A DNA stretch of 64,000 nt from NCBI GenBank assembly GCA_030681595.1, contig JAUXSB010000037.1, positions 133,708 through 197,707 on the forward strand, written 5' to 3'. Positions 1-32,817 of this stretch are shown piece after piece. Each line of letters begins with the position of its first letter. Within the stretch, counting starts at the first letter, position 1. The stretch is from Candidatus Omnitrophota bacterium. Lineage in GTDB: Bacteria; Omnitrophota; Gorgyraeia; Ghiorseimicrobiales; Ghiorseimicrobiaceae. A model generated the notes under the pieces. The model was not told where the DNA came from. It saw only the letters and a program-made list of their open reading frames with translations, and ran no database searches. The position numbers were made by a program, and so were the translations under genes.

Positions 1-96
1 AGAGTCAAAAAGCCTTAAGCTTTCCCGTAGGACAATCGCTAAATACCGAACCCAACTTAAGATTCTTCCCTCATATCTACGTAAAGAGTAATTTAA

Positions 97-177
97 CCAC
101 GTGCACCTCATCTAAATAACTTTACATTTTAAGCAATGCTTAAAATGTAAAGTTATGGATATTCGCGGTGCACGTGG
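97..177. repeat. REP-like composite palindrome. The inner 41-bp perfect palindrome ATAACTTTACATTTTAAGCA-A-TGCTTAAAATGTAAAGTTAT (116-156) is nested in an outer inverted repeat CCACGTGCACC...GGTGCACGTGG
   Basis: Read directly from the sequence. The same 41-bp palindrome recurs at 10591-10631 and 14055-14095. It lies just 3' of the MOSC gene. Confidence 0.7.
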
Positions 178-183
178 CCTGGC

Positions 184-657
184 TTAATCTGGAGTGATTG
201 GGTCGTTGACAGAGATTTGCCCGCCTTTTATTACCTTAGCGAAAATTCCTTCCTTAGGCATGATGCAAGAACCCACTTTTTTAAAAATCTCGCAATAATC
301 GTGGCATTCCTTACCGATTTGGCTTATTTCTAAGATAACGGAATTATTAATGGTTAGTTTGTCGCCTACCTTGAGATTGGCTAAGTTTATGCCACAAGTG
401 GTGATATTTTCGGCAAAATCTCCGGGTTTAAAGGCCGGGTTTTTTTTCTTATGTTTATGGCAGGTGTTTTGTTTTTCTATACTTTCCCATGAGAGTAAGC
501 TTATTTGCCGGTGAGTGTTGCCACTATGCACATCGCTTTCTATGCCGAAATTTTCGATTAGATTGGCTGTTTTGACCCCGGTTTTAGAAACTCCTTTTTT
601 CGCGCTGATATTTATGGAAAAAACCTGTCCTTTATTATTTTCGTTTAAATTTGCCAC
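184..657 (-). CDS. MOSC domain-containing protein
   Basis: 157-aa ORF with a MOSC-like beta-barrel signature. It sits immediately downstream of moaC and overlaps it by 23 nt, a conserved pairing. Confidence 0.55.
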   Translation of the reverse strand: MANLNENNKGQVFSINISAKKGVSKTGVKTANLIENFGIESDVHSGNTHRQISLLSWESIEKQNTCHKHKKKNPAFKPGDFAENITTCGINLANLKVGDKLTINNSVILEISQIGKECHDYCEIFKKVGSCIMPKEGIFAKVIKGGQISVNDPITPD

Positions 658-1078
658 TCTTGCCGCCTTCTTTTTCTAAAAGTTTTACTTCAATAGACAT
701 GCTTTTATCTAAATATTTACACATATCATAGACGTTGAGCGCGGCAACGGATGCGGCGGTAAGTGCCTCCATTTCAAATCCAGTACGTTGCGCTCCGCTA
801 ACTTCCGCGCGTATTAAAAGCAGATTTTTTTTAAAAGAAAACGAGATGTCTATATGGGAAAAATCGATTGGGTGGCATAGACAGATTAAGTCTTTGGTTT
901 TTTTTGCCGCCAGTATCCCTGCGAGCGTTGAGACGGCTAACACATCGCCTTTTTTAACTTTTCCCTGCATAATTATTCTCAGGGTTTCTGGTCGCATGGA
1001 AACTTCTGCCATAGCCACCGCTCGGCGTTGTGTTATAGGCTTATCAGAAACATTTACCATGGTTATATTTTTTTTCAT
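635..1078 (-). CDS. moaC: Cyclic pyranopterin monophosphate synthase MoaC
   Basis: 147 aa. Carries the typical MoaC segments (MVNVSDK...; GDVLAVSTLAGILAAKKT...; EMEALTAASVAALNVYDMCK). Confidence 0.8.
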   Translation of the reverse strand: MKKNITMVNVSDKPITQRRAVAMAEVSMRPETLRIIMQGKVKKGDVLAVSTLAGILAAKKTKDLICLCHPIDFSHIDISFSFKKNLLLIRAEVSGAQRTGFEMEALTAASVAALNVYDMCKYLDKSMSIEVKLLEKEGGKSGKFKRK

Positions 1079-1152
1079 CTCTCCTCTTTTCTAATCTATT
1101 CCACTTCCGCCAGAACGCTTGTCGGGCATGCCCGCGGTGTAATATGGTTTGT

Positions 1153-2064
1153 TTAGGATTTTAGGATTTTTTCTATATTAGCGCCTAAGATATTCGTTTT
1201 ATCTTCTTGGGAAATGGCTAAATTTTTTACTGCGTCTATTGAGCCGGTAATGTCTTTTTTTGCCGGCCAATCGCTACCCCATAACAGGTGGCTTGGGCCG
1301 AATAAATCTAGGGCGGCGAGAAAATTAGCCTTATTGGTATCGCCGCTAGTATCCACGTAGATATTTTTTAGGTAATCGCTAGGGTTACCTTTTAAATCTT
1401 TAACAAAATTTATCCCGCGCAGCATCTGGTAGGTAGCATCAAAGCGGTGTTTTAGGAATGGAATTACTCCTCCAAAATGAGCAAAGATAAATTTGATGTC
1501 GCTATAATCCCTTAGTATGTCTGCCATAAGGAGCTTACCGATGGAGATAGTTGTATCAAAGACATATTCAATTACCGGCGTAAGTAAAGGGTCTTGCACG
1601 CGTTCATAACCGATGGGGTTAACAATTTGGGAATGAATGAAAAGTGGGATATTTTTTCCCCTTGCTTCTTTGAAAACCGGAAGAAAGATTTTGTCATCTA
1701 AATATTTTCCGTTATAGCTCGAGGCTAAAGAAAGCGCTTTAAAGCCCATCTCTTGCGTCGTCCGCTTGATTTCATCGAGCATATCTTGGCCGTTATCTAT
1801 GGGCAGGATTGCCGCGCCTATAAAACGCCCGGGGTGGCGTTTTATTATCTTTCCGACATTGTCATTATAAATCCGCGCAACCCTGCTGATACTGCCCAAT
1901 TTTAAATGCGCATCCGAGGTAGGGTAACTTAAAACTGCTTTATTGATACCTGCCCCATCCATTATTTTTAGCTGCCCCTCAATATCTGACCAGCCTTTAT
2001 GGAAAAAATGCGCATTGTTGATAATTTCTTCCGGCAGCCAGTGGGAATGGGCGTCAATGATCAT
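1153..2064 (-). CDS. Amidohydrolase-2 family (PF04909-like) TIM-barrel metal-dependent hydrolase/decarboxylase
   Basis: 303 aa. N-terminal 'IDAHSHW' metal-binding motif and amidohydrolase-related fold signatures. Confidence 0.55.
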   Translation of the reverse strand: MIIDAHSHWLPEEIINNAHFFHKGWSDIEGQLKIMDGAGINKAVLSYPTSDAHLKLGSISRVARIYNDNVGKIIKRHPGRFIGAAILPIDNGQDMLDEIKRTTQEMGFKALSLASSYNGKYLDDKIFLPVFKEARGKNIPLFIHSQIVNPIGYERVQDPLLTPVIEYVFDTTISIGKLLMADILRDYSDIKFIFAHFGGVIPFLKHRFDATYQMLRGINFVKDLKGNPSDYLKNIYVDTSGDTNKANFLAALDLFGPSHLLWGSDWPAKKDITGSIDAVKNLAISQEDKTNILGANIEKILKS

Positions 2065-2065
2065 A

Positions 2066-2674
2066 TTATTTGTTGGTTAATTCTACTGTATCGATGTAAA
2101 TTACGCTTTTTGCTTCAGCCAGTGGCTCGAATTGAAAGCTTTTAATGGGAAAATCTAATACGGCATTTGCGTCTGCTGTCTGCGGTTGCCAGTCGCCCCG
2201 GGCGAAAAATTCATTGAATAGGCAAACAATCTGTTTCCAGCCCGTAAAATCATCCGTAATTATAAACCGCCACATTTCATTGCCGTTATCCTTAATATCA
2301 AAGGCGATTCTGGTTTTTGAATTACTACCGTAGGCATAAAAACTTATTGAGCTGTATTTTTCCCATGTTATTGCTTCCGGTGTAACCAACCAGGCGGTAT
2401 TTTTGGCATCTAAGCCGAATCCTTTGGCGATCCACATATAGCCGCCGGATACGGCGTCAAATGTAATTTTTAGGGATTGCGCGCCGGAATTTTTTATATT
2501 TGTATCAGCGGTTACCTCAACCGATGAGCCGCTGCCTGAGCCAAAGTCAACAGTACCATTTTCCCCGCCGCAAACAGGGTTTTCAAAATCTTCAATCAGC
2601 AAATTCTTTTCCTGTGCAAAAGAAGGTATCGCAAGCGAGAAAAATAAAATAAAAATAAGTTTTATAATTTTCAC
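2066..2674 (-). CDS. Secreted protein with CBM/CIA30-like beta-sandwich
   Basis: N-terminal signal peptide (MKIIKLIFILFFSLAIPSFA). The rest resembles a carbohydrate-binding module. Weak call. Confidence 0.3.
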   Translation of the reverse strand: MKIIKLIFILFFSLAIPSFAQEKNLLIEDFENPVCGGENGTVDFGSGSGSSVEVTADTNIKNSGAQSLKITFDAVSGGYMWIAKGFGLDAKNTAWLVTPEAITWEKYSSISFYAYGSNSKTRIAFDIKDNGNEMWRFIITDDFTGWKQIVCLFNEFFARGDWQPQTADANAVLDFPIKSFQFEPLAEAKSVIYIDTVELTNK

Positions 2675-2742
2675 TGTTCTCTCCTTTCTGTTTTTAAATT
2701 TGTCATTGGCCTGCCAGCAGGCAGGGATTTTGTCATTTGTCG

Positions 2743-3516
2743 TTATTTATTCGGATGCGCCTGTTTAAATGGGATCACCGGTGCAGTCCATGGCGTCTGC
2801 TGATTGATTATCGCGATTTCTAACGGGCAGACATTTGCCGGAACTGTCAGCGCGAATTTAACCGCGTTCTCTATTGCTTCGGTTGTCATCAGGCGCGATG
2901 TATCGGCGGTTATCTCTTTTAGTTTGCCTGTTAAGTCTGTATCGGTAACACCCGGAAGTATTGAGGTGATTTTTATGCCGTGGTCGCGTACTTCCCAGAA
3001 CAGCCCCTTTAGAAAAGCTTTTAAGCCGACCTTCAACGAACTATAGACGATAAAGCTTCGCGGAACCGGGTCGCATAAGGTTGAGCCGGAAACCATGTTG
3101 ATGATGCTGCCTGATTTTTGTTTAATCATGTCATTTATAACTAGCCTAATCAGACGCACATAACCTAAGTAGTTGGTGTGGGCTAGTCTTTCAAAATCTT
3201 CTATTGGTTGTTCATGAAATGGGTATTGACTGGAGACGCCGGCATTATTGATTAAAATGTCTATTTTACCGAATTTTTCTTTGGTTTTGTTGACTAAATT
3301 TTCCAAGTCTTCTAGCCTTGTTACGTCGCAAGCCACAGGCAAAACTTCTACCTTATATTTCTTGGCGATTTCAGCGGCAGTTTCCTTTAATGAGCCTTCG
3401 CCGCGTGCCGCAATAGTTAAGTTAACTCCTAAACTTGCGCAGGTTTGTGCAATGGCCTTACCAATGCCGCGGCTTGCGCCGGTAACAATTGCGGTTTTTC
3501 CTTTTAGTCCACTCAT
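2743..3516 (-). CDS. SDR-family oxidoreductase (FabG-like ketoreductase)
   Basis: TGASRGIGKAIA Rossmann motif, NNAG motif and a YxxxK-type catalytic region. 257 aa. Confidence 0.8.
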   Translation of the reverse strand: MSGLKGKTAIVTGASRGIGKAIAQTCASLGVNLTIAARGEGSLKETAAEIAKKYKVEVLPVACDVTRLEDLENLVNKTKEKFGKIDILINNAGVSSQYPFHEQPIEDFERLAHTNYLGYVRLIRLVINDMIKQKSGSIINMVSGSTLCDPVPRSFIVYSSLKVGLKAFLKGLFWEVRDHGIKITSILPGVTDTDLTGKLKEITADTSRLMTTEAIENAVKFALTVPANVCPLEIAIINQQTPWTAPVIPFKQAHPNK

Positions 3517-3528
3517 TTTATATGCCTC

Positions 3529-4650
3529 CTACTTTGAAAATAATAAAGCCCTGGCTGAAAACGCCAGCATAATTAAAGCCGCCCCAAAGACTATGAAATG
3601 CAAGTTAAAGCCTTTTTGTATGGTGATACTTCCTAAGGTAACGCCCAACCCGCCTGCCAAAAAACGCACGCTGCTGTTTAAGCTCGCCGCCTCATTTAAA
3701 AATTCTTTCGGTAAATCCGTAAGCCTTGTGGAAAGTCCTGCGTGGTTGAATGTCCACCCCAACCCCCAGATAAGCATAAGCAAGGCCAAAATGAAAACCG
3801 GAAATTTGAATATCAGTAAAAATACGCTAAAAATCATGCAGATTATTCCCCACTCTATTGTTTTGAACCTGCCTTTTGTGTCTGATAGGTGCCCGCCGAT
3901 GAATTCGCCGAATATTCCGCTAAGGCTGGTTAAAGTAATCAGCATGCTGATTAGAAATTGGCTGAAGTTAAATTCTAGAGAGAAGTAAACGCTTAGCCAT
4001 TGCTGGACTCCGTGGAAAAATATGCTTACAAAAAATATATAGGTAAATATGGAAAATACGGTTTTATTCTTTAAAGCAGGCAGATAGTTAATTTTAAAAC
4101 TCGCGGCTTCCCCCTTAAAGCTGGGCAGTTTTATGTAAATCGCGATCCATAATAAGAATCCGCATATTGCCGGAATAATAAAAATCAACCTCCAGTGGAT
4201 GATTCCGCTTAAAAATAAGCCCAGAAGCGAAGCGATAAAAGTGATGCTAAAGAAAGAGCCGACGCAACGGCCCCGGTTTTCTTCGGTTGTGTGATGGGCG
4301 ATTAGGATTAAGACAAGCGGCGTAACTGATGCCCCGAATATGCCCATAAGAAATCTGGCTAAAAAAAGAGTGTTAATATTTTGCGATAAGCCCGCCAATA
4401 AATTGCTTAAAGAAAAGAAAAGCAGAGCGATTAGTTCTATTTTTTTGACATCGAAAGTACGGGCAAGCGGGCCGTAAAAAAGCGCGGCAATGCCGTAAGG
4501 AAGCATATAAAGCCAGACAATACGGCCGGCAACGATTTGGCTGACGCTAAAATCCGCGGATATTGACGGGATTAATGCTGACGCCGCGGCAACATTAAAC
4601 GATAAAAGCGCGCCTTCCAGGCACAAGATAACAAAGGTTACCTTTTTCAT
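3529..4650 (-). CDS. MFS transporter
   Basis: 373 aa, about 12 predicted TM helices, MFS-type loop motifs. Confidence 0.7.
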   Translation of the reverse strand: MKKVTFVILCLEGALLSFNVAAASALIPSISADFSVSQIVAGRIVWLYMLPYGIAALFYGPLARTFDVKKIELIALLFFSLSNLLAGLSQNINTLFLARFLMGIFGASVTPLVLILIAHHTTEENRGRCVGSFFSITFIASLLGLFLSGIIHWRLIFIIPAICGFLLWIAIYIKLPSFKGEAASFKINYLPALKNKTVFSIFTYIFFVSIFFHGVQQWLSVYFSLEFNFSQFLISMLITLTSLSGIFGEFIGGHLSDTKGRFKTIEWGIICMIFSVFLLIFKFPVFILALLMLIWGLGWTFNHAGLSTRLTDLPKEFLNEAASLNSSVRFLAGGLGVTLGSITIQKGFNLHFIVFGAALIMLAFSARALLFSK

Positions 4651-4657
4651 GAATTTT

Positions 4658-4688
4658 AACCAGTAACACCTACGCGGTGTTACTGGTT
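4658..4688. repeat. REP-like palindrome AACCAGTAACACC-TACGC-GGTGTTACTGGTT
   Basis: Perfect 13-bp arms. The core GTAACACC-TACGC-GGTGTTAC is identical to the copy at 9294-9314. It lies about 7 nt upstream of the MFS start codon. Confidence 0.7.
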
Positions 4689-4693
4689 TTAAC

Positions 4694-5134
4694 TTAGGTT
4701 TTTGCTTCTTTTTCTATGACTTCTTTAAATATTTGTAAATTTTCCTTGGAATGCTTGTTAATGAAGCCTTCAACTTGCTCGTCGTTAAATTTGGCTTTTT
4801 CATCCATTTCGAAATGCTGGATCCAGGTCATCTCTATGCCGTTAAGCTTGGCTGTATAAAGCCAGATAATTTTCATATATTTAAAGGGAAATTTTGGCTC
4901 TTCCCGCTCGGAATAGGTAAAGAATTTATCTTTATGAAGCAGGCGCCAGGACTGCCAGGATTTGCCCTCATCATCAGTCAGGCGAAAAGTGATTTTATTG
5001 CCTTCTTTTTTCACTACTTCCGCCTTCTGGTATTCGCCGCCGAATAGCTCTGTCCAACGCGGTATGTCGTTTGAAATGTCAAAGACTAAATCATAAGGCG
5101 CATCAATAATTATAGAATTACACGTATGTCCCAT
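4694..5134 (-). CDS. SRPBCC-superfamily polyketide cyclase/dehydrase-like protein
   Basis: 146 aa, PF03364/PF10604-like helix-grip fold pattern. Clustered with KS/CLF/ACP. Confidence 0.5.
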   Translation of the reverse strand: MGHTCNSIIIDAPYDLVFDISNDIPRWTELFGGEYQKAEVVKKEGNKITFRLTDDEGKSWQSWRLLHKDKFFTYSEREEPKFPFKYMKIIWLYTAKLNGIEMTWIQHFEMDEKAKFNDEQVEGFINKHSKENLQIFKEVIEKEAKT

Positions 5135-5148
5135 TTATCCCTCATTTT

Positions 5149-5466
5149 TTATTGTTTGCCTGATAAACTCAAAAGTATTGCCAAATTTTCGCTAGCACTT
5201 AGTGAATGCGGCGCATTCTTGGGCATAAAAATAAATACCCCCGGCTTCATCTTAATTTTTTTGCCGTTTAAGATAAAGGTGCCTTTGCCTTTTAGGACGG
5301 TTACGGCCGCTTCGCGTGTAGATGTGTGTTCGGAAATATCGCTACCTTTAGCTAAGCACATTAGCGTGTGATTAGAAATATCGGTCTTAATTAAAACCTT
5401 ACTGAAAACCCCTTGCTTGGGAAATTCCATCATTTGTTCTAGGTTTTCAACTAGCGATTTAATCAT
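5149..5466 (-). CDS. Cupin-domain protein
   Basis: 105 aa small beta-barrel with a cupin_2-like G(x)5HxH...E...PxG..H pattern. Confidence 0.55.
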   Translation of the reverse strand: MIKSLVENLEQMMEFPKQGVFSKVLIKTDISNHTLMCLAKGSDISEHTSTREAAVTVLKGKGTFILNGKKIKMKPGVFIFMPKNAPHSLSASENLAILLSLSGKQ

Positions 5467-5472
5467 ATTTTC

Positions 5473-6267
5473 TTATTCTAAAATAGCCACTACCCTTGCC
5501 CAAGCGGCGCCGGTTTTTTTGATTTTTATGGGCAGGCAGTGGATTTTAAAACCGTAGTCGGGTAGTTTATCTAAATTTGCCAGCCGTTCTATGTGTATAA
5601 ATTCTCTTTTTCGGCCATAAAAATGCGTAGGATACAACGGTTTTTTCTGCTCTAAAAATTCCTTGAGCATAAATTTATACGGACGGTCAATGCCCATTGT
5701 ATCGACGCCGAATATTTTTATGCCTCTGTCTAACAGGTAATCTATAGCTGATATATCTATTCCGGGATAATCCGAGAAGTATTTTGGCCCCCCATATAGT
5801 TTATCCGCGCCGGTGCATAAAAGAACGATATCTAAAGGCTTAATCTGGTAGTTGATTTTTATAAGAGCTGCTTCTATATCTTCAGCGTTAATGGTTTCGT
5901 TTGGTTTTTTATGCGTCAGGTTAAGTCTTGCGCCGTTTTGCATACACCATTCCAGCGGGATTTCCTCCGCGGTTTTTGAGGCGCGGCCTTCCGAGCGTGA
6001 TCCGTAGTGATATGAATAATCAAGGTGCGTTCCGATATGCACTGGTGAATGCACGGTTTCTAGAGATAAAAATTCTTCATCCGGTAAGTCTTCTTTTTTA
6101 AGTATGCGCCTACCTAGTAGATATTTAATTCTACCCGTGATGGTTTTACCCATAATCACGCGGTTAAACTTCTCTACACCAGCCGCGTGGTTTACGCGTT
6201 CAATCTTAACCTTATGCACTTCGAATGCCGTATCATCAATCGGTAAACTCAAGTCAATTATCTGCAT
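5473..6267 (-). CDS. Cyclase-family protein (PF04199; kynurenine-formamidase-like fold)
   Basis: HIGTHLDYSYHYG matches the HxGTHxDxPxH signature of the putative cyclase family. Confidence 0.6.
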   Translation of the reverse strand: MQIIDLSLPIDDTAFEVHKVKIERVNHAAGVEKFNRVIMGKTITGRIKYLLGRRILKKEDLPDEEFLSLETVHSPVHIGTHLDYSYHYGSRSEGRASKTAEEIPLEWCMQNGARLNLTHKKPNETINAEDIEAALIKINYQIKPLDIVLLCTGADKLYGGPKYFSDYPGIDISAIDYLLDRGIKIFGVDTMGIDRPYKFMLKEFLEQKKPLYPTHFYGRKREFIHIERLANLDKLPDYGFKIHCLPIKIKKTGAAWARVVAILE

Positions 6268-6279
6268 TTTAGTTTTTAA

Positions 6280-6306
6280 CCATGTGCACTACCGCAGTGC
6301 ACATGG
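6280..6306. repeat. REP-like palindrome CCATGTGCACT-ACCGC-AGTGCACATGG
   Basis: Perfect 11-bp arms. Intergenic between the ACP and cyclase genes, about 12 nt upstream of the cyclase ATG. Confidence 0.65.
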
Positions 6307-6308
6307 GG

Positions 6309-6557
6309 TTATTTAAGTTTTGAATTAGTGAGTTTTGAATTAATGGTATTTGTGATTTGCTCTATAGTGTTGAATTTAGTTACTTCTTTGGCGCTTAGCT
6401 TTGTGCCAAATTCTTTTTCTAGGGCAATTACTGTTTCTACCATTTCGGTTGAATCAACGCCAATGCTATCTTGAAGCGAGATACCATCTTTTAATTCTTC
6501 AGGTTTAATTTTTAATAGTGTAACCAACACATTTTTTATTCTATTTTTTGTTTCCAT
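6309..6557 (-). CDS. Acyl carrier protein
   Basis: 82 aa. DSIGVDSTEMVE motif with the phosphopantetheine-attachment Ser. Confidence 0.75.
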   Translation of the reverse strand: METKNRIKNVLVTLLKIKPEELKDGISLQDSIGVDSTEMVETVIALEKEFGTKLSAKEVTKFNTIEQITNTINSKLTNSKLK

Positions 6558-6572
6558 TTTTTCTCCCTAAAC

Positions 6573-8033
6573 TTAAATATGTACTTCGCCTTTGGTAGCA
6601 CCTGCTTCCCAGCGGTCTACCCCTGCCATTACGTCCTTAAAGCAGAGCTTAGCTAATTGATCAAAGTCGCTTTCTAAGATACGGTGGATTCTTCCGGGCT
6701 TGGAGAAAAATTCGCGCATACACCAAGAGCCGAGTTCGCCTAATTGTTGGGTTGATAGGTGATCTGTAGGCATAACCGGGTGCAGGAAATCCCATTGCAA
6801 AAAGTTAATTGTTTTCGGGTTAATCCAGCTTTTCTTAAGGCCCATCCTCCACATCGGTGAATTTGGCGATGGTGTGACATAGCCAATCCACAAGATATCC
6901 GGGTCTACTTCGTCGGTAAATTCATATCTTTGCTTGATAATTGCTTCGTTGTCATAGTCAAATCCCATCATGATGTCGGCAACGACAGCTATATTCTGCC
7001 GGCGTAATATGTCTATGGTTTTCTTGATGTGGTCAATGGTAATGCCTTTAGCGATTTTCTTTAACTCTTCAGGGGTAGTGACTTCGATTCCGAATACGCC
7101 GATAAAAAGCCCTGTTTCTTTCATTAGGGGTAATATTGATTCACAGTTTACCCAGTCAATGGCGCGGCCTAAAGAAACCCACTTTATCGGGTTATTGGCG
7201 GCTTTTTTTAGCTCGCAGAACTTCTTTACTCTTTCCGGGTTGGTGTTAAAGTTATCGTCTTGCAAGACTACTACTTTTACCCCGTATTTTTTATGCAGGA
7301 GGTTTAATTCTTCAACTACTCTTTCCGGTGATTTTGCGCGCCATTTCAGGAAGTCACTAGGGCTGCGTGGATCATATTGGTCCCATTCATAACAGAATGT
7401 GCAGGCTGAAGGACATCCACGGGAAGTAACCATATCCACAAACGGTTTCCAGTAGGTATGGCCTACATATTTATCCATTGGGAACAAATCGTATGCCGGA
7501 AGCGGAAGCTTATCTAAGTCCATATTCAGCGGGCTATATGGCCCCATTACAGGTTTGCCGTCAACGCGGCTGGTGACACCAGCGACTTTCGCGATATCTT
7601 TTTTCTTATCTATTGCTTCAATTAAATCAGCGAATGATTCCTCTTCGCCCATTACGACGTAATCAACTGCCGGGTTTGCCTCAAGGGTTTCCGTAGGCAT
7701 TGCTGAATACCAAAGCCCGCCGAAAATAATCTTGGTTTTAGGCAGAACTTCTTTTATGCGTTTAGCTGCTTCGTTAAAATGCGCGACCACAGCGTATCCG
7801 CCGTAAGAATGTAATTGCTCGCCTAACACCACGATATCGGGATTTTTCTCTTTTACCTTGGCGGTCATTTCATCGGCTGGGATTTCAAGGGCCTTACAGT
7901 CTAAGACCTCAACATTGTCATAGCCCTTTTCCCTGACATACGCCGCCCAATGCGCGTATAGCTGGTTTGGTGCCACATGTTTTCCGTGCGTTGCCCAAGC
8001 GCCTACTTTAGGCATTACGAATAAAATTTTCAT
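6573..8033 (-). CDS. B12-binding domain-containing radical SAM protein
   Basis: VTSRGCPSACTFCYE (CxxxCxxC) radical-SAM core preceded by an N-terminal cobalamin-binding-like Rossmann domain. 486 aa. Confidence 0.75.
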   Translation of the reverse strand: MKILFVMPKVGAWATHGKHVAPNQLYAHWAAYVREKGYDNVEVLDCKALEIPADEMTAKVKEKNPDIVVLGEQLHSYGGYAVVAHFNEAAKRIKEVLPKTKIIFGGLWYSAMPTETLEANPAVDYVVMGEEESFADLIEAIDKKKDIAKVAGVTSRVDGKPVMGPYSPLNMDLDKLPLPAYDLFPMDKYVGHTYWKPFVDMVTSRGCPSACTFCYEWDQYDPRSPSDFLKWRAKSPERVVEELNLLHKKYGVKVVVLQDDNFNTNPERVKKFCELKKAANNPIKWVSLGRAIDWVNCESILPLMKETGLFIGVFGIEVTTPEELKKIAKGITIDHIKKTIDILRRQNIAVVADIMMGFDYDNEAIIKQRYEFTDEVDPDILWIGYVTPSPNSPMWRMGLKKSWINPKTINFLQWDFLHPVMPTDHLSTQQLGELGSWCMREFFSKPGRIHRILESDFDQLAKLCFKDVMAGVDRWEAGATKGEVHI

Positions 8034-8050
8034 TGTAACCCCTTTCTTTT

Positions 8051-9280
8051 TTAAGGTTTTTCTATAACCATCGCCGCGTTAATTCCGCCGCGGCCGCGGG
8101 AAATTATCAGTGCTTTGCTTATTTTATGCTCTCGCGCTTCTTTTGCCACGTAATTTAAGCCATTCGGATTTGGATTGTCTAGGTTTATTGTTGGAGGCAG
8201 TAGGCTGTGTTCCATAGCCAAAAGCGTAATGATTAAATCTAATGCTCCAGATGCGCCGAGTAAATTTCCAAACATTGATTTAGGGCAGCTTACCGGAATG
8301 TCTTTCGCTTTATTCCCGAATACTTCCTTAATTGCTTTTACTTCGCTATTATCCCATAAATCTAGCGCAAGGCCGTCTAAGCTGATATAGCCTATATCTT
8401 CCGGGTTAACCTTTGCGTCGGAGAGCGCTGATTTTATCGCGCGGGCTAGTTCTTTACCGTTAGTATCAGGCTGGATGCGGTCATATCCATCGCAGTTTGA
8501 GGCGTATCCGGAAATAACCGCGGATATATTGGCATTACGTTTCTTTGCGCGTATAATCCCTTCCATTACCATAATACCTGCGCCTTCGCCGATAACAAAG
8601 CCGGATTTATTTTTATCAAACGGGCGGTAAGCGGTTTCTGGATGTTCGTTATCCGTTGTAAGCCCGCCGTAGGTATTACAACATAAAAGCGCATAGGGTG
8701 TTACTGGTGCTTCCATCCCACCGGCTAAAATCATATTCAGTTTATTTTTACTCAAGGTTTTACGCGCATAGCCGATTGCTTCAAGAGAACTGGCGCGGTC
8801 GGCAACCACGGTTTTTGAAAATCCCTTTATGCCGTAATAAATAGAAACTTGGCCTTGGGGGGCTGCCGGAAACCATGCTGAAGCCATATAGGGAGAAACC
8901 CCTTCCCTGCCTTCCAGATATAAATCCCGAAGTTCTGTTTCGGCATAGAGCCAGCCGCCGATAGCATTGCCTAAAAATATCCCAATTAAATTAGGGTCTT
9001 CGTTTTTAATATTGATGCCTGCGTCTTGCAAAGCAAGTTCCGAGGCGATTAATGCCATATGGGAAAAGGCGTCTATTTTTTTAAGCAAGCGTTCAGAGAT
9101 ATGGGAATATTTTTCCAGCTCATCAATTTGGCCGGCAATATGCGAGGGGTATTTCGAAGCGTCAAAGCGGGTGATTTTTTTAACAAAGGATCTGCCCGCC
9201 TTAATATTTGCCCAGAATTGTCGTTTGCCTATTCCGCTGGGGGCGACCACGCCTATACCTGTAATTGCAATCTTTTCCAT
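8051..9280 (-). CDS. Beta-ketoacyl synthase family protein, chain-length-factor-like (catalytic Cys and first His absent)
   Basis: KS fold throughout. The active-site position reads VADRASS instead of TACSS (Cys to Arg). The HGTGT motif is replaced by SLDGLA. Confidence 0.7.
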   Translation of the reverse strand: MEKIAITGIGVVAPSGIGKRQFWANIKAGRSFVKKITRFDASKYPSHIAGQIDELEKYSHISERLLKKIDAFSHMALIASELALQDAGINIKNEDPNLIGIFLGNAIGGWLYAETELRDLYLEGREGVSPYMASAWFPAAPQGQVSIYYGIKGFSKTVVADRASSLEAIGYARKTLSKNKLNMILAGGMEAPVTPYALLCCNTYGGLTTDNEHPETAYRPFDKNKSGFVIGEGAGIMVMEGIIRAKKRNANISAVISGYASNCDGYDRIQPDTNGKELARAIKSALSDAKVNPEDIGYISLDGLALDLWDNSEVKAIKEVFGNKAKDIPVSCPKSMFGNLLGASGALDLIITLLAMEHSLLPPTINLDNPNPNGLNYVAKEAREHKISKALIISRGRGGINAAMVIEKP

Positions 9281-9293
9281 GATTTTTAAACCC

Positions 9294-9314
9294 GTAACAC
9301 CTACGCGGTGTTAC
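9294..9314. repeat. REP-like palindrome GTAACACC-TACGC-GGTGTTAC
   Basis: Same core as at 4658-4688. About 13 nt upstream of the KS-beta start, between the two KS genes. Confidence 0.65.
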
Positions 9315-9320
9315 TAATGG

Positions 9321-10592
9321 TTATGCTTTAAATCGTTTCATAATTAATGATGAGTGTATTCCTGAAAAACCACTGCTTGTTTTTAGCATGGTATTTACTT
9401 TTTTTTCGCGCGCGACATTAGGAATATAATCCAAGTCGCATAAAGGGTCTTTTTCTTCCTGATTTATTGTCGGCGGTAAAATATTATTTTGAAAAATCAT
9501 ACAACCAATAGTAAGCTCTATCGCGTTTGCCGCGGCCAAGGGGTGTCCGATCATTGACTTAAGCGAGCTGATCGGCAGTTTATAGGCATAATCGCCGAAA
9601 ACTATTTTATAGGCGCTGGTTTCAAAGATATCGTTCATGCGTGTGGATGAGCCGTGGGCGTTAATATAGTCAATATCAGTTGGTTTAGTCACAGCGTCTT
9701 TAAGCGCAAGAGTAATGCAACTTGCCATAGCGGTTCCATCAGCCGGCAGGTCAGTCATGTGAAAGGCATTGCAACTGGTGCCAAAGCCGATGACCTCGGC
9801 ATAGATATGGGCGTTACGCAAAAGTGCATGTTGTAATTCTTCCAGGATTAATATTCCCGCGCCTTCGGAAAGCACAAAACCGTCGCGCTTTTTATCAAAC
9901 GGGCGTGATGCCGCTTCAGGATTGTTATTGTGTACAGATAAGACATTTACTACGTCAAAGGCGCCGAAGGTTATCGGCGTAAGCGGGGCTTCAGCCGCAC
10001 CGCAAATCATGATATCATGTTCGCCGTCTTGGATAGTTTCTAAACCAAAGCCCAGCGAGTCGGTTCCGGCAGTGCATCCGGTAGAAATTGTATTACAGAC
10101 TCCTTTTAAGCCATACTTAGCCGAGATTTCGATGGATGGCGTATTAAACATTGCCGCGTCATAAAGATCAGGCCTAACTTTCGACGGGTCAATTTCGTGT
10201 TTTCCATTTTCGGTGACTAAAGCGAATTCTTCTTCCATATATTTTGTTCCGCAGATAGCATTGGCAAGGCAGACGCCGATACGCTCGGTATTTTCTTTTG
10301 AGAAGATAAGCCCAGAGTCATTTACCGCCATATAAGCCGCCGCTACTCCAAATTGGACATATCTATCCATGCGCATTGCTTCATCGTGGGTTAGGCCGAG
10401 CTTAAAAGGATTAAAATCCCGGACCTCCGCGGCAATTTTCGTGTTAAATACTGATACATCAAATCCGTCAACTAATCTTACGCCGGATTTACCGGAAATA
10501 AAAGCTTGATAAGCTTCTTCTTTGCCGATACCGTTAGGTGAAATTACGCCAATGCCTGTTATAGCTACTCTTCTTTTTTTCATGATATCCAT
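9321..10592 (-). CDS. Beta-ketoacyl-ACP synthase (KS-alpha-like, catalytically intact)
   Basis: Active-site Cys in STGCTAGTDS, plus the His motifs NAHGSST and MIGHPL. 423 aa. The likely start is the second Met (MKKRRVAITGIG). Confidence 0.8.
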   Translation of the reverse strand: MDIMKKRRVAITGIGVISPNGIGKEEAYQAFISGKSGVRLVDGFDVSVFNTKIAAEVRDFNPFKLGLTHDEAMRMDRYVQFGVAAAYMAVNDSGLIFSKENTERIGVCLANAICGTKYMEEEFALVTENGKHEIDPSKVRPDLYDAAMFNTPSIEISAKYGLKGVCNTISTGCTAGTDSLGFGLETIQDGEHDIMICGAAEAPLTPITFGAFDVVNVLSVHNNNPEAASRPFDKKRDGFVLSEGAGILILEELQHALLRNAHIYAEVIGFGTSCNAFHMTDLPADGTAMASCITLALKDAVTKPTDIDYINAHGSSTRMNDIFETSAYKIVFGDYAYKLPISSLKSMIGHPLAAANAIELTIGCMIFQNNILPPTINQEEKDPLCDLDYIPNVAREKKVNTMLKTSSGFSGIHSSLIMKRFKA

Positions 10593-10631
10593 AACTTTAC
10601 ATTTTAAGCATTGCTTAAAATGTAAAGTTAT
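10591..10631. repeat. 41-bp perfect palindrome (AACTTTACATTTTAAGCA arms), copy 2
   Basis: Identical to 116-156 except for the central base. Abuts the KS-alpha start codon. Confidence 0.7.
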
Positions 10632-11245
10632 TTGCTTGGTTCTCCTTCTTGTCCTTCGATCTGTGATACTTTAAATACGATATTCCCTCCATCCGGGCAG
10701 GTTACCGTATCAATAGAATCCGGATTAGGCATAAAGAAAAATTTTGCTCCGAAGTTAAGCGCAAAGAGCGCGGGAAACGCGGTATGAAATGCCGCGCCGC
10801 AGAACCCGGGGATACATTTAAGCCCGGTGGTTTCCCATTTGTCTCCTACCTTATATCCAAAGTGGCATTTACCGGTTGCTTTAACAACTTCGATAACCAT
10901 TTTTTTAGGTTTCGGGCCTTTATGAGTTTCATCCTTAGGTATGAATTGGACTTTATCGCTGCCCTTTTCAAAAATCTCTGCCTTAAATTCCAATTTTCCA
11001 CCGTCGGGGCAGGTTACTTTTAAAGAGCGTTGGTTATCCATAAACGGAAATTTTGCCCCAAAACTTAAGGCATAGATTATCGGAAATAAAACGTGGGCTA
11101 ATCCAAGGCAGAAAAACTCCGGCGGATGGGTAAAATCATCTAAGATTAGCTCATCGCCGATTTTATAGCCGTGATAGCAATGGCCGAAGACATTGGTTAC
11201 GGTGAGTTTTAGTCTTGGGAATGGGGAATCTATTTTTTTATCCAT
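10628..11245 (-). CDS. Tandem-duplicated TIGR04076-family protein
   Basis: Two repeats each carry a CxxGHxxGD-type motif (GHCYHGYKIGDE...CPDGG; GKCHFGYKVGDK...CPDGG) and the ALFP/ALNFGAKF segments typical of TIGR04076. Confidence 0.5.
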   Translation of the reverse strand: MDKKIDSPFPRLKLTVTNVFGHCYHGYKIGDELILDDFTHPPEFFCLGLAHVLFPIIYALSFGAKFPFMDNQRSLKVTCPDGGKLEFKAEIFEKGSDKVQFIPKDETHKGPKPKKMVIEVVKATGKCHFGYKVGDKWETTGLKCIPGFCGAAFHTAFPALFALNFGAKFFFMPNPDSIDTVTCPDGGNIVFKVSQIEGQEGEPSK

Positions 11246-12241
11246 TTAACTTTTGACAAGAGTTAATAATTCTTCTTTGCTAAAAAACTTTCCCGTTTTT
11301 TCAACCTGATGCACCATCTGGGTTAATTTTTCATTAAGCGGCGCGGAAATGCCGTTTTTTTTGGCTAAATTCACAAATTCTCCGTTGATATAGTCTATTT
11401 CAGATGCCTTGCCTCTTTTTATACTCTGTAAAATTGAGCCGTAAAGCGGCTCGCGGCTTAGATTAAACATAATATTAGAAAAAATCTTTGCTGCTTCATC
11501 GTGTGGCATATTGGCAAGCGCTACATATCGTTTAATGTCAAATTCCGGTAATGATACCGGTTTAATTCCGGCTTTAGCTGTGATATCAAAGGCCTCTTTA
11601 AGCAGTTGAATACTTATTGCGGCCATCTCTACTTCTTTAAATGTCTCTTGCATACTGAAGCCTACGACTGCAGGGATACAATTATTTAAGTTTATGAAGA
11701 GCTTTGTCCATTTCATCCCTTTTATTTGTTCGGAAATAGTAGTTTTAAAGGCGCGGTTTAAAACTTGCTCAACTTCTTTCAGTTTTTCGTCGATTTTTCC
11801 GTTTGATCTACCAATAATCCAGCCGCCCTCAAAGTTATGCGTGATATGGCCGTAATCTAAGTGGGTAGCACCGAACATTACGATACTGGAAATAATATCC
11901 GCGCCTTTAATAGATTGCGCGACAATTTCATCAGCACGTATCCCGTTTTGGGTAGTAAGGATAATGCTATTTTTTAAAAATTCCTCGTTTTGGGCTACTA
12001 CCTCATTTATGTCTTGAGTTTTGACTGCTAAAATTGCTAAGTCAGCAGGTGTATTCAACTTGGTGTCGGCGTCTATCTTAACGTTAATTTTTCCGCGTAC
12101 CCCATCTATCGCAAGCCCGCTTTTCTTGATAGCTTCAGCTTGTTCTTTTTTGGCAATCAGTGCGACATCACAGCCTTTATCTTTTAGATAAGCCGCAACT
12201 ACCCCCCCAATTGCTCCTGCGCCAATAACAATGATTCTCAT
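11246..12241 (-). CDS. 2-dehydropantoate 2-reductase family (ApbA/PanE-like) oxidoreductase
   Basis: N-terminal IVIGAGAIGG Rossmann and a KPR-like C-terminal domain. 331 aa. Confidence 0.65.
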   Translation of the reverse strand: MRIIVIGAGAIGGVVAAYLKDKGCDVALIAKKEQAEAIKKSGLAIDGVRGKINVKIDADTKLNTPADLAILAVKTQDINEVVAQNEEFLKNSIILTTQNGIRADEIVAQSIKGADIISSIVMFGATHLDYGHITHNFEGGWIIGRSNGKIDEKLKEVEQVLNRAFKTTISEQIKGMKWTKLFINLNNCIPAVVGFSMQETFKEVEMAAISIQLLKEAFDITAKAGIKPVSLPEFDIKRYVALANMPHDEAAKIFSNIMFNLSREPLYGSILQSIKRGKASEIDYINGEFVNLAKKNGISAPLNEKLTQMVHQVEKTGKFFSKEELLTLVKS

Positions 12242-12283
12242 ATAGTTATAAGTTATGAGTGATAAGTTATAAGTTCGCTGCTT

Positions 12284-12562
12284 TTATTTCGGATAACCGT
12301 ATTTTTTATAATCAAATCCGCTTTTTTCTAACAATCGCACCATCATACTATAAAACGGCGACGGCACGTCAGAGAAAAAGGCGAAGATTACGTCTTGCTC
12401 TTCAACTTGGCCGGCATTACGCCTAAAGGCATTTTCCTCTGCCCTTTTAGTGACGACGCTTTCGGTAATCCGACGGTGAAAAACCGGAATCTTTTCAATC
12501 ATTGCCTTAAATTTTTGCTGAATCTCGCTATCCCAGTTCATTTTATCTTTTACGCAAACCAC
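12284..12562 (-). CDS. Small PCP_red-like (PF08369) domain protein
   Basis: W..E....KIPVFHRR...V..AEENA pattern resembles the protochlorophyllide-reductase C-terminal domain. 92 aa. Weak call. Confidence 0.3.
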   Translation of the reverse strand: MVCVKDKMNWDSEIQQKFKAMIEKIPVFHRRITESVVTKRAEENAFRRNAGQVEEQDVIFAFFSDVPSPFYSMMVRLLEKSGFDYKKYGYPK

Positions 12563-14043
12563 GACGTAACCAAAGACCTGCCTGTGGGGTTTAGGTCAAT
12601 GTTTACGTGCTTGGTTTGGGTGTATTCTAGGAGTCCTTCTTTGCCGAGTTCGCGGCCAAAACCACTTTCCTTGTATCCGCCAAAGGGCGCTTCGTTATAA
12701 AAGCCGCCGTAGGTATTTATCCAGACGGTTCCGCAGCGAAGTTGCGCTGCCACCTGATTTGCCCGGTTTAAATCTTTGGTCCAGACCATAGCTGCTAAGC
12801 CAAATTTTGTGTCATTGGCGATCTTAATTGCCTGATCTTGTCCGGAAAACTTAATGATAGATAATACCGGCCCAAAAATCTCTTCCTGCGCAATCCGCGC
12901 GTTATTATCCACATCTATAAATATCGTCGGCTCCAAATAAAACCCTTTTTCTAACCGTTTCCCACCTCCGAGGTGGGCAAGGGGGATGATGCCGCCAGAG
13001 ATGAGTTTGGCTTCTTTTTTACCGATTTCGATATAATCTAAAACGGTTTGGCGATGTTCTCTTGAGATAAGCGGGCCAAAGTCGGTATCATAAGATATGG
13101 CATTTCCGATTTTAAGTTTTTTGGTTTTGGCAACCAATAATTCTATAAATTTATCGTAAATTTTATCTTCTAAAATTAGGCGCGATCCGGCTGTGCACAT
13201 CTGTCCTTGATTCATGAATATTGCCGACATTGCCCCGCCCACTGCCGCCTCTATATCACAGTCGGCAAATACAATATTCGGGCTTTTGCCGCCTAATTCA
13301 AGAGAGAGTTTTTTGGTGCTGCCCGAAGCCATTTTCATTATTTCTTTTCCCGCAGTATTTCCTCCGGTAAAAGAAATCATATCTACGAGTTTGCTTTCGG
13401 TTAAGGTCGCGCCTACTTCCTTGCCTGTGCCGGTAATAATATTTACTACACCATTGGGTAAGCCCGCCTCTTGTATTATTTTGGCTAATTCTAAGCAGCT
13501 TAAGGATGCAAGTTGTGAAGGCTTAAAAACAACCGTATTCCCTAAAATAATTGCCGGTGCTATTTTCCAAGCGGCCATTAAAAATGGGTAATTCCATGGG
13601 ATAATCTGGCCGATGACGCCTACTGGCTCTTTGAGGGTAAAGCTTAATGCCGGATTATGAATCGGAATTGTTTCGCCTTTTATTTCGGTTGCGGCCGCGG
13701 CAAAGTATTCAAATGCAGATGCGGCAGTAGGTATATCAATAAAAGTAGTCTGTTTTATGGTTTTTCCGGTATCAAGTGATTCTAATTTAGCCAATTCGTC
13801 AGCCTTTTCTCTTATGAGTTGCGCGATTTTTTGAAGGTAAGGTGCTCGTTCAATAAGCGGCATTTTAGGCCAGTCGCCGGAGTCAAAAGCGAGCCTTGCC
13901 GCTTTAATTGCGGTTTCTGTATCGCGAGCGTCTGCCGCGGGAAATTCCGCTAGAATTTCGCCGGTTGAGGGATTAATGCTTGCAATGGCCTTGCCTGCGT
14001 TAACCCAAGTGTTGTCTATGTACATGTTATATTGTTTAAGCAT
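12550..14043 (-). CDS. NAD(P)+-dependent aldehyde dehydrogenase
   Basis: ALDH family. Catalytic Cys in GQMCTAGSR and Glu in ELGGKSP. 497 aa. Confidence 0.85.
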   Translation of the reverse strand: MLKQYNMYIDNTWVNAGKAIASINPSTGEILAEFPAADARDTETAIKAARLAFDSGDWPKMPLIERAPYLQKIAQLIREKADELAKLESLDTGKTIKQTTFIDIPTAASAFEYFAAAATEIKGETIPIHNPALSFTLKEPVGVIGQIIPWNYPFLMAAWKIAPAIILGNTVVFKPSQLASLSCLELAKIIQEAGLPNGVVNIITGTGKEVGATLTESKLVDMISFTGGNTAGKEIMKMASGSTKKLSLELGGKSPNIVFADCDIEAAVGGAMSAIFMNQGQMCTAGSRLILEDKIYDKFIELLVAKTKKLKIGNAISYDTDFGPLISREHRQTVLDYIEIGKKEAKLISGGIIPLAHLGGGKRLEKGFYLEPTIFIDVDNNARIAQEEIFGPVLSIIKFSGQDQAIKIANDTKFGLAAMVWTKDLNRANQVAAQLRCGTVWINTYGGFYNEAPFGGYKESGFGRELGKEGLLEYTQTKHVNIDLNPTGRSLVTSWFA

Positions 14044-14054
14044 ATTTAATCTCC

Positions 14055-14095
14055 ATAACTTTACATTTTAAGCAATGCTTAAAATGTAAAGTTAT
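14055..14095. repeat. 41-bp perfect palindrome, copy 3
   Basis: Identical to 116-156. It fills the intergenic space, followed by GGAG (RBS) and the ALDH ATG. Confidence 0.7.
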
Positions 14096-18794: not shown

Positions 18795-18840
18795 AGTAAA
18801 ATTTGACTATCAAATTAATAGTAAAATTTTACTATTAATT
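18795..18840. promoter_or_regulatory. Palindromic operator-like site AATAGTAAAATTTTACTATT with an upstream TAGTAAAATTT half-site
   Basis: 20-bp perfect palindrome at 18817-18836, immediately 5' of the acyl-CoA ligase start. A PadR regulator is encoded about 0.7 kb upstream. Confidence 0.35.
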
Positions 18841-21129: not shown

Positions 21130-21145
21130 CTTTTTATAGAATTAA

Positions 21146-21249: not shown

Positions 21250-21387
21250 TTAAGTTACCTCAAGGCTTGGACTATCTCATCACCATAGCTTTATGTTTCT
21301 TAGCTTTAGGCGGTAGGCGCTTAGTCTCTGCACCTTCACCCCTTCTTGTTTTCACAAGAAAGCAGGGGCGCTTGGCTCAGGATTGCC

Positions 21388-32811: not shown

Positions 32812-32817
32812 ATATGG

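Follow-up and report, generated by a model that had tools for sequence, protein, structure and literature searches.

To our knowledge, repetitive extragenic palindromes (REPs) and REP-associated tyrosine transposases (RAYTs) have been studied almost entirely in Proteobacteria. REPs shield upstream mRNA from 3′–5′ decay, and their loops are targeted by some insertion sequences, e.g. IS1397 and ISKpn1. REPs are located between unidirectional or convergent genes, near the 3′ ends of the upstream genes, they donate stop codons, and some of them are intragenic (PMC3733652). Atypical REPs and REPtrons without a GT[AG]G foot are known from subclass 2.6 and class 3 of the TnpA-Y1 proteins (PMC6006769). 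Here, short palindromes were analyzed that recur in a stretch of 64,000 nt from a Candidatus Omnitrophota bacterium (assembly GCA_030681595.1, contig JAUXSB010000037.1, positions 133,708 to 197,707; "the window"), most densely in a biosynthetic gene cluster. We consider it probable that they represent two REP-like families, one of GC hairpins and one of AT-rich 41-mers, and that the GC hairpins are the cognate hairpins of a RAYT-like HUH/Y1 single-stranded DNA transposase encoded in related genomes.

The system works like a REP/RAYT system, but it lacks the GT[AG]G foot that strict membership in the canonical GTAG class requires. The hairpins share with the E. coli and Pseudomonas REPtrons their extragenic location close to stop codons, with some in-frame cases, and their genome specificity. 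Further common features are a Y1/HUH gene between its own hairpins, an inverted doublet (32761–32822), and TnpArep as the nearest solved structure. In contrast to these REPtrons, a conserved ACC-GCGKN-GGT apex and TAACC/GGTTA feet are found instead of the GT[AG]G foot, the protein of about 220 aa has extensions and an NCBIfam score below the cut-off, and the hairpins are mostly singlets with perfect stems that are sparse outside the operon. In addition, three divergent genomes carry the gene within a conserved biosynthetic operon, and the host belongs to the Omnitrophota.

Non-canonical flanking structures that lack GT[AG]G and recur in the genome are also features of TnpA-Y1 subclass 2.6 (Bacteroidetes) and class 3 (Planctomycetes, Acidobacteria) (Quentin et al. 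2018, PMC6006769). Class 3 differs, however, by a Y-x4-Q motif and a CnGA foot, whereas a class 2-like Y-x3-NP motif and TAAC are found here. In-frame hairpins in protein loops or linkers are shared with the Rickettsia RPEs and the intragenic GTAG REPs of Opitutus terrae (PMC3733652), but the sequence family is a different one, and here a single protein site carries a different hairpin in each genome. ISPpu9 copies inserted in REPs are described (PMC8450116). As with IS1397, ISKpn1, and ISPpu9/10, one repeat is found inside the loop of another (a 41-mer in the GC hairpin at 97–177), but the insert is a non-coding 41-nt palindrome, and no insertion sequence that could be its parent was found. 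Like the Planctomycetes, the Omnitrophota are usually assigned to the Planctomycetes–Verrucomicrobia–Chlamydiae (PVC) group. The elements are of an ordinary kind, in a phylum for which literature searches retrieved no REP/RAYT report.

Two palindrome families in the window and its relatives

The cluster consists of about 22 closely packed genes (positions 184–18794), which are on the minus strand like nearly all genes of the window, and it looks like one transcription unit. The gene products include an AMP-ligase, a PNP/UDP phosphorylase, an IF-2B-type isomerase, a class II aldolase-SCP2 fusion, and an aldehyde dehydrogenase; an ApbA-type reductase, the ketosynthase subunits KS-alpha and KS-beta, a B12-radical-SAM enzyme, and an acyl carrier protein (ACP); a cyclase, a cupin, an SRPBCC protein, an MFS transporter, and an SDR; and CBM_11, amidohydrolase, MoaC, and MOSC proteins. 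The MOSC gene converges with the C-terminal part of the sigma-54 gene rpoN (2–90, plus strand). A preliminary description of the region had emphasized the density of palindromes in the cluster, and this density is real; it is probably explained by the transposase gene having ancestrally been inside the operon.

For comparison, the orthologous clusters of three relatives were fetched (L010, KS-beta 90% identical, on a 519-kb contig; L011, 85%; L013, 91%). L015, from Omnitrophica WOR_2, was used as a more distant third genome with the transposase in the operon, and the relatives compared at the RACo-CooC locus were L017 (22 kb; RACo with 95% amino acid identity) and L018. Copy counts cover the 64-kb window and the fetched loci of the relatives. 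Collection scans were restricted to exact matches, and therefore diverged copies are missed.

All palindromes of the preliminary description were recovered, and the motif searches for the 41-mer and the two GC hairpin types had only 0.00–0.01 expected matches. The window contains 12 perfect stems of at least 11 bp, compared to a mean of 0.1 in 20 dinucleotide-preserving shuffles, and the palindromes are thus far beyond chance. No Rfam 15 family matched any of the hairpins at the gathering score when the window was scanned; the only matches were three tRNAs, a group I intron, and a c-di-GMP-I riboswitch, all of them away from the hairpins. Scans of viral contigs with both palindrome cores gave zero matches, and therefore no phage link is indicated. 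The repeats had been sorted into three sequence types. They are genuine repeats, but a better grouping is one GC family with variable stems and one AT-rich family. The unit size is 27–41 nt with perfect stems of 8–20 bp in the two families. The window harbors six GC units at five loci, an additional outer GC hairpin, relics, and three 41-mers (Table 1). The in-frame hairpin, the linker sequence, and the relic in the amidohydrolase-MoaC gap are further elements of the cluster that had not been listed before.

Table 1. Coordinates of the palindromic elements in the window
Feature	Start	End	Strand	Description
Composite element, operon end	97	177	-	GC hairpin CCACGTGCACC...GGTGCACGTGG; loop starts with GCG and holds a 41-mer
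Decayed REP relic, amidohydrolase-MoaC gap	1079	1152	-	CCATATTACACC-GCGGG ... GGAAGTGGAATAG; weak, by inspection
GC hairpin, SRPBCC-MFS	4655	4691	-	AACCAGTAACACC-GCGTA-GGTGTTACTGGTT; covariance model 45.4 bits
GC hairpin, ACP-cyclase	6275	6311	-	TAACC-CCATGTGCACT-GCGGT-AGTGCACATGG-TTAAAA; model 37.8 bits; RNA fold -18.8 kcal/mol
GC hairpin, KS-alpha/KS-beta	9286	9322	-	TAACCATTA-GTAACACC-GCGTA-GGTGTTAC-GGGTTTAAAA; model 37.8 bits
In-frame GC hairpin, aldehyde dehydrogenase gene	12951	12987	-	CCCACC-TCGGA-GGTGGG, then CGGTTAGAAAAA; model 34.3 bits
REP-derived sequence, aldolase-SCP2 linker	14424	14550	-	ATTCCACC-GCGGG-[about 52 nt]-GGGTGGACAT; in-frame; tentative
REPIN-like doublet, RACo to CooC-like gene	32761	32822	.	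Two inverted ACACC-GCGGG-GGTGT units; model 39.5 and 30.2 bits
41-mer copy 1	116	156	.	Center A (plus strand); arms identical at the orthologous L010 site
41-mer copy 2	10591	10631	.	Center T (plus strand); upstream TAA in the ATAAC end; KS-alpha ATG 7 nt on
41-mer copy 3	14055	14095	.	Center A (plus strand); aldolase TAA inside; then GGAG; aldehyde dehydrogenase ATG 11 nt downstream

Within the GC family, GTAACACC-TACGC-GGTGTTAC occurs at 4663–4683, where the perfect arms reach 13 nt (4658–4688), and at 9294–9314. CCATGTGCACT-ACCGC-AGTGCACATGG is found at 6280–6306, CCACGTGCACC (97–107) and GGTGCACGTGG (167–177) are the arms that enclose 41-mer copy 1, and a palindrome with 15-nt arms is located at 32772–32811. 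Oriented by the loop, the hairpins of the window and of eight loci follow the architecture (T)TAA-CC-N6-ACC-GCGKN-GGT-N6-GG-TTA(AA). A covariance set was compiled from 28 instances at 8 loci. The 11-bp helix was paired to 89%, compared to about 37% in slid controls, and nine of the 11 pairs changed on both sides. The covariation score was 0.517 versus 0.18 in shuffles, none of 500 of which reached 0.517; as the instances had been chosen for at least five pairs adjoining the loop, covariation is tested without bias only by the six outer pairs.

The stems are genome-specific. In 21 kb of L011, ATGTAGACC-GCGTA occurs seven times, with both flanks of the transposase gene among these copies, and there is one TATCAACC hairpin. 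The KS-alpha/KS-beta junction contains a hairpin in all four genomes, with the stem GTAACACC in the window and L010 (identical hairpins), CCATGTAGACC in L011, and CCATATCAACC in L013. At the amidohydrolase-MoaC junction, where the window has a decayed relic, L010 has the intact hairpin CGTTGTCCACC-TCCGA-GGTGGACAACG. At the operon end, the L010 ortholog of the composite element (about 20360–20450) has decayed outer arms and an intact inner 41-mer.

Outside the cluster, copies of the GC family were found in the window (32761–32822) and in L014, L016, and L018. The inverted doublets are located at 32761–32822 in the window, at 1249–1292 in L014, and at 1292–1329 and about 19805–19840 in L018. The window doublet has TAACC and GGTTA ends and provides the stop codon of RACo. 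With the covariance model built from the 28 instances, no further convincing copy was detected in the window, and none was found in the 22 kb of L017 or in 43 kb of the other metagenome-assembled genome (MAG), which carries 41-mers. The GC family occurs at dispersed sites, but few copies lie outside the operon to which the transposase gene ancestrally belongs.

Comparison with the relatives also revealed gain or loss of copies. The RACo-CooC junction is without the doublet in L017, where the genes overlap by 4 nt, and in L018, where the gap is 1 nt. Because the orthologous junction is empty in both relatives, the doublet was probably gained in the lineage of the window. Within the aldehyde dehydrogenase gene, protein alignment placed insertions of the window, L011, and L013 at a single site, where L010 has no insertion, and the insert of L011 is that genome's own REP. 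At one position of the aldolase-SCP2 linker, L010 and L011 carry different perfect hairpins and L013 carries another in-frame insertion. A further gap on the minus strand of the window, between FmdE and CdhD (36130–36250), contains two strong hairpins, TGGTTGGGAAAGTA/TACTTTCCCAACCA and GAAACTTCG...CGAAGTTTC (with an inner GC stem), which are missing from the orthologous gaps of L017 and L018 and may represent a third, lineage-specific type of palindrome.

The 41-mer, ATAACTTTACATTTTAAGCA-W-TGCTTAAAATGTAAAGTTAT, consists of perfect 20-nt arms and one central base. It had been reported as a GC-rich 41-bp palindrome at three sites. The three sites were correct, but the quoted string had only 40 nt, because the central base was missing, and with 8 G/C of 41 (about 20%) the element is not GC-rich. 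The central base is A or T irrespective of the direction of transcription, and thus the 41-mer is functionally symmetric. The TAAC...GTTA ends are common to the 41-mer and the GC family, which hints at a shared enzyme for both families.

The ortholog of copy 3 in L010 (5171–5209) has identical arms, as does that of copy 1. Because third-codon identity between the window and L010 is only 0.635, the chance that 80 neutral sites (the 41-mer arms at the two orthologous sites) stay unchanged is about 1e-16. Copy 2 has no counterpart at the corresponding junctions of L010 (AT-rich gap of 127 nt), L011 (gap of 3 nt), and L013. The L010 gap between h205 and KS-alpha (8573–8699) is an imperfect long palindrome, and the neighboring gap of L013 contains tandemly stuttered fragments resembling one arm of the 41-mer, CTTTACATTTTAA. 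These junctions look like a graveyard of palindromic insertions.

The 24-nt core of the 41-mer was compared with a collection containing one genome per species. It was found on seven contigs, all from MAG CAYZNX01 (labelled uncultured Planctomycetia bacterium), and a metagenome scan matched a single contig of 1.2 kb. At least 11 further 41-mer copies are present in CAYZNX01. All seven core-matching copies of this MAG have AACTTC...GAAGTT, whereas the copies of the window, L010, and L009 have AACTTT...AAAGTT. This is a compensated change from T-A to C-G that is fixed across the CAYZNX01 family. In the L003 variant, the TTT/AAA block is swapped on both arms, and two 41-mer variants have a non-complementary inner 7-mer. 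All nine copies with checked context (eight from CAYZNX01 and one on the metagenome contig) are located in short gaps between co-directional genes. The CAYZNX01 copies lie at most about 25 nt ahead of the next start codon, often directly before a Shine-Dalgarno (SD) sequence, and one of them is upstream of a glucose-1-phosphate adenylyltransferase-like gene.

The placement of the elements in the window is stereotyped. On the coding strand, every hairpin begins 0–6 nt past the upstream stop codon. At five sites, the hairpin ends 7, 11, 13, 12, and 7 nt ahead of the next ATG, in agreement with the 7–13 nt given previously; the SRPBCC-MFS hairpin, for example, begins 5 nt past the stop codon and ends 7 nt ahead of the ATG. 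At the KS-alpha and ACP junctions, the upstream TAA is the TAA of the TAACC foot. The claim that all copies are intergenic between co-directional genes holds for six gaps, but copy 1 lies between convergent genes, and one GC hairpin is in-frame within a coding region. The intergenic sites comprise six co-directional gaps, one convergent gap, and no divergent gap. At the convergent operon end of L011 (18632–18664), the GGTTA foot of the terminal REP, when read on the other strand, provides rpoN with its TAA stop codon; in the window (88–107), the rpoN stop codon is 6 nt ahead of the terminal element.

SD sequences had been described as mostly missing after the palindromes. This is the case for three gaps with GC hairpins, which contain GGTT(T)AAAA, but GGAG follows 41-mer copy 3. 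Downstream of the hairpins, the coding strand reads GGTTAAAA, GGAGAT, or GGATAT. The hairpin-free gaps of the operon mostly have GGAG, GAGG, or GGGG before the start codon. As no SD sequence follows the GC hairpins, it might be speculated that the downstream genes rely on reinitiation or on the A-rich GGTTAAAA tract.

RNA folding resulted in stabilities from -13 to -47 kcal/mol overall (z -3.3 to -11) and from -13 to -22 kcal/mol for single units. The values were -21.9 kcal/mol for the SRPBCC-MFS hairpin, -35.6 kcal/mol for the doublet, and -46.8 kcal/mol (z = -11) for the composite element. Intrinsic terminators were rejected as an explanation because the coding strand lacks a U-run and the total of terminator-like sites equals the shuffle expectation; the terminator scan flagged only 6280–6306, on the antisense strand. 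The ideas of internal promoters and attenuators were dropped, as no promoter was found at the palindromes and no terminators on the coding strand. In the promoter scan, which detected no sigma-70-like promoter at the palindromes, the top site and the only strong one was at 18854–18826 (minus strand), in front of the operon's first gene.

A RAYT-like transposase between its own hairpins

A gene with a PF01797 Y1_Tnp domain is present between the ACP and cyclase genes of L010, L011, and L015, at the position where the window has the lone hairpin 6280–6306. In these three genomes as well as in L014 and L016, the Y1 gene is flanked on both sides by ACC-[GT]CG[GT]N-GGT hairpins. In L014 and L016 the gene resides in other contexts, and copies of the same type were found 5.8–8.7 kb away. 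The flanks are CCTATTCCACC-CCCGC-GGTGGAATAGG and CATTCCACC-GCGGG-GGTGGAATAGG in L010, and ATGTAGACC-GCGTA-GGTCTACAT and ATGTAGACC-TACGC-GGTCTACAT in L011. Because the loops of the two flanks are reverse complements in both genomes, the hairpins are inverted, as in a REPtron.

The only NCBIfam match of the Y1 protein is REP_Tyr_transpos (NF047646). A profile of 24 homologs matched E. coli TnpArep (PDB 4ER8) with E = 2.4e-6 and ISDra2 TnpA with E = 3.7e-3; judged by these profile comparisons, the protein is closer to TnpA-REP than to the TnpA of IS200/IS605. The HUH residues H88 and H90 as well as Y148-x3-N152-P153 are invariant in all 24 homologs and align with the motifs of E. coli TnpArep. 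The protein has about 220 aa, with N- and C-terminal extensions.

The RAYT-like family has at least 1584 homologs, and those with a named source are mostly from Omnitrophota; among the matches listed, most of 120 homologs are each seen on one contig. Sequence identity is 55–56% across the three genomes that share the ACP-cyclase position. A tblastn search for the RAYT in the 41-mer loci of the other MAG found none, and a match in L006 (E = 0.17), on the strand opposite to a glucose-1-phosphate adenylyltransferase-like gene, was regarded as noise.

REP-like elements and the competing explanations

The preliminary description had proposed three options, i.e. REP-like elements, operators for a symmetric regulator, and structures controlling translational coupling. 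The first is favored by the hairpin flanks of the transposase gene, copies outside the cluster, gain and loss, intragenic copies, and the dispersal of the 41-mer. More generally, the REP reading follows from the short palindromes, their placement at gene ends, the donation of stop codons, intragenic cases, genome-specific stems, and the flanking of a Y1 gene. At the ACP-cyclase site of the window, the transposase gene is gone and a single hairpin is left.

A mechanism can be envisaged as follows. The enzyme would recognize the hairpin folded on single-stranded DNA via the conserved apex and the TAAC/GTTA foot, and it would cut and rejoin the hairpin, whereby copies could be seeded or replaced. 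The surviving insertions would be those in tolerated places, namely right after stop codons, in short operon spacers, in convergent gaps, and in in-frame protein linkers, and the element would often supply the upstream TAA. The 41-mer might be mobilized in a similar way, or it might be a miniature inverted-repeat transposable element (MITE) of some transposase, and it would be kept identical to a master sequence in each genome. With the cluster apparently forming one transcription unit, each copy would also be transcribed, into a stable RNA hairpin 0–6 nt past a stop codon and 7–13 nt before a start codon. By analogy to the REPs of E. coli, we infer that such hairpins should impede terminating ribosomes and 3′–5′ decay and thereby shape relative expression. 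With stable RNA hairpins 0–6 nt past stop codons, roles as mRNA stabilizers, as processing sites, or in translational coupling are plausible as consequences of the insertions.

Several observations weigh against the REP/RAYT reading. The feet are (T)TAACC and GGTTA(A), the canonical 5′ GT[AG]G foot is absent, and GTAG occurs only inside the L011 stem or spanning a loop-stem junction. The E. coli residues that contact GTAG (Q95, E100, H101, and R104) are not conserved in the Y1 protein, which would be consistent with the missing foot. Its scores with NF047646, 53.4 and 70.5 bits, are below the equivalog cut-off of 80. Most copies in the cluster are singlets and not REPIN doublets, and outside the cluster the density is low, with one locus in about 45 kb of the window. 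A tblastn search did not find the RAYT-like gene in the 64-kb window, which weakens the case for current activity in this genome, and no transposase adjoins any of the 41-mer loci examined. Target-site duplications were sought by comparing filled with empty junctions; none was evident, and the flanks are strongly diverged. Last, the 41-mer and the KS-gap hairpin have stayed perfectly conserved at orthologous sites despite saturated synonymous divergence, which fits host selection as well as homogenization.

The last point leads to the best-surviving alternative, to which we assign a minor but appreciable probability: punctuation of the operon that is selected by the host, whatever the mobile origin. 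The hairpins would act as exonuclease barriers, as sites of RNase III-type processing (the 41-mer has a perfect stem of 19 bp), or in reinitiation coupling. The stability of the stems (-13 to -47 kcal/mol, z -3.3 to -11) and the stereotyped placement between stop and start codons argue for this explanation, as does the KS-alpha/KS-beta junction, which has a hairpin in four genomes despite differing stems. Between the window and L010, neither the 41-mer nor the KS-gap hairpin differs, at a third-codon identity of 0.635, and in the terminal element of L010 the outer GC hairpin has decayed while the inner 41-mer was kept. Genes led by GC hairpins have no SD sequence, whereas most gaps without a hairpin do. 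In E. coli, ribosomes stall at REPs located within 15 nt of a stop codon, and the gene upstream is translated less (Liang et al. 2015, as cited in PMC12306157). However, both families also occur at unrelated loci and inside coding sequence, junctions are empty in the close relatives L011, L017, and L018, and the association with the transposase accounts for the distribution without a host function. Of all features, only the perfect 41-mer conservation across saturated synonymous divergence is poorly explained by a purely selfish model; a host-selected RNA function is its best explanation, which is compatible with a mobile origin.

Somewhat less probable is that the 41-mer is a MITE in which two 20-bp terminal inverted repeats of a conventional, non-Y1 transposase are fused head to head, so that it would be unrelated to the GC hairpins. 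The perfect palindrome with 20-nt arms and a free central base (A or T, whatever the direction of transcription) is compatible with this view. The same is true for the composition, which is far from that of the GC family, for the homogeneity of the family within each genome, and for the location of copy 1 in the loop of a GC hairpin, the kind of site that IS1397 targets. Nevertheless, no full-length element with these ends and no transposase beside the examined copies was found, and no target-site duplication was evident. The TAAC...GTTA ends are shared with the GC family, and the inner-arm variants keep pairing, which is a better fit to a hairpin substrate than to terminal repeats bound as duplex.

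A third and still less likely possibility combines the enzyme with a host role. The hairpins, and the 41-mer in particular, would be domesticated operon punctuation and more than tolerated selfish repeats. A RAYT-like enzyme expressed from within a biosynthetic operon that is conserved across the phylum would install and keep perfect hairpins at stop/start junctions, and the host would use the RNA to set the stoichiometry of the pathway enzymes. The RNA hairpins would then be processing or stability sites, or they would control reinitiation and replace the SD sequence.

Operators for a symmetric dimeric regulator of the biosynthetic cluster are very unlikely. The perfect dyad symmetry, the recurrence within one cluster, and a PadR-family regulator gene just upstream of it (19486–20004) speak for this option. 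It is disfavored because the sites lie inside operons, 7–13 nt before start codons, and away from the only strong promoter-like site (18854–18826). Moreover, arms of 20 nt are much longer than typical operator half-sites, the GC stems change between genomes with retention of pairing, the same 41-mer occurs in unrelated operons of CAYZNX01, and copies are present inside coding regions.

Least of all do the data fit integron attC-like recombination sites at gene-cassette boundaries: the sites do lie between a stop codon and the next co-directional start, their ...AAC and GTT... ends loosely recall attC cores, and a hairpin marks the 5′ junction of the variably present MFS gene, but attC sites have at least about 57 nt, are imperfect with extrahelical bases, and have RYYYAAC/GTTRRRY cores, whereas these hairpins have only 27–41 nt with perfect stems and flanks such as GTTAAAA that do not fit GTTRRRY, the cluster is a conserved syntenic operon and not a cassette array, no integrase turned up among the window genes that were scanned or assigned through synteny, and the hairpins flank a Y1 transposase gene instead.

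Other features of the region and implications

The operon is extremely conserved in Omnitrophota (window, L010, L011, and L015), and KS-beta has more than 100 homologs with 79–91% identity, of which the named ones are from Omnitrophota. The KS-beta protein of the window is 100% identical to one that NCBI assigns to a Candidatus Omnitrophota MAG. The operon couples a type II polyketide synthase (PKS)-like set (KS-alpha/beta, ACP, cyclases, and B12-radical-SAM enzyme) with putative salvage genes; the phosphorylase, the IF-2B-type isomerase, the class II aldolase-SCP2 fusion, and the aldehyde dehydrogenase resemble a 5′-deoxyadenosine or methylthioribose salvage shunt. The MFS gene (3529–4650, minus strand) is present in the window and in L015, and it is absent between the SRPBCC and SDR genes in L010 and L011. 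As the GC hairpin 4655–4691 is located exactly at the 5′ junction of this variable gene, hairpins may mark sites of gene gain and loss.

Upstream of the cluster, a perfect AT-rich palindrome of 14+14 nt, AATTAATAGTAAAA/TTTTACTATTAATT (18813–18840), overlaps the best sigma-70-like match and is a candidate operator. The palindrome ATGTATGGAAATT-N9-AATTTCCATACAT is found beside an MgtC-like gene in the window (38742–38776) and in L018 (5886–5920), and L018 has repeated ACAACTTACGAAAAT-N4-ATTTTCGTAAGTTGT palindromes before two genes. Both types are probably regulatory sites unrelated to the REP families.

Two structured RNAs were also noted. At 21130–21520 (minus strand), a group I intron (RF00028, 103 bits, 21248–21469) appears to interrupt a tRNA gene that was not called by ARAGORN. 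The parts of the tRNA are GGGCAGGTACCCAAGCGG...GCAGACT upstream and ...AAATCTGC...GGTTCGAACCCTCTCCTGCCCA downstream, and with its long variable arm it looks like a tRNA-Leu. An insertion of the intron in the neighboring thymidylate-synthase-like gene was rejected, as that gene is intact according to tblastn. A c-di-GMP-I riboswitch aptamer (RF01051, 70 bits) is present at 45724–45817 on the plus strand, i.e. opposite to almost all genes, upstream of a small open reading frame on the same strand (45936–46241).

Taken together, these results point to a widespread RAYT-like family in an uncultured phylum, with a hairpin recognition architecture that differs from the known one and has no GTAG foot. 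The RAYT-like gene has a conserved position in a highly conserved operon with type II PKS-like and radical-SAM genes. Because the hairpins supply stop codons, occupy the expected positions of ribosome-binding sites, and insert in-frame, they will affect gene callers as well as operon and start predictions in these MAGs. The elements are also natural markers of recent genome change between close lineages.

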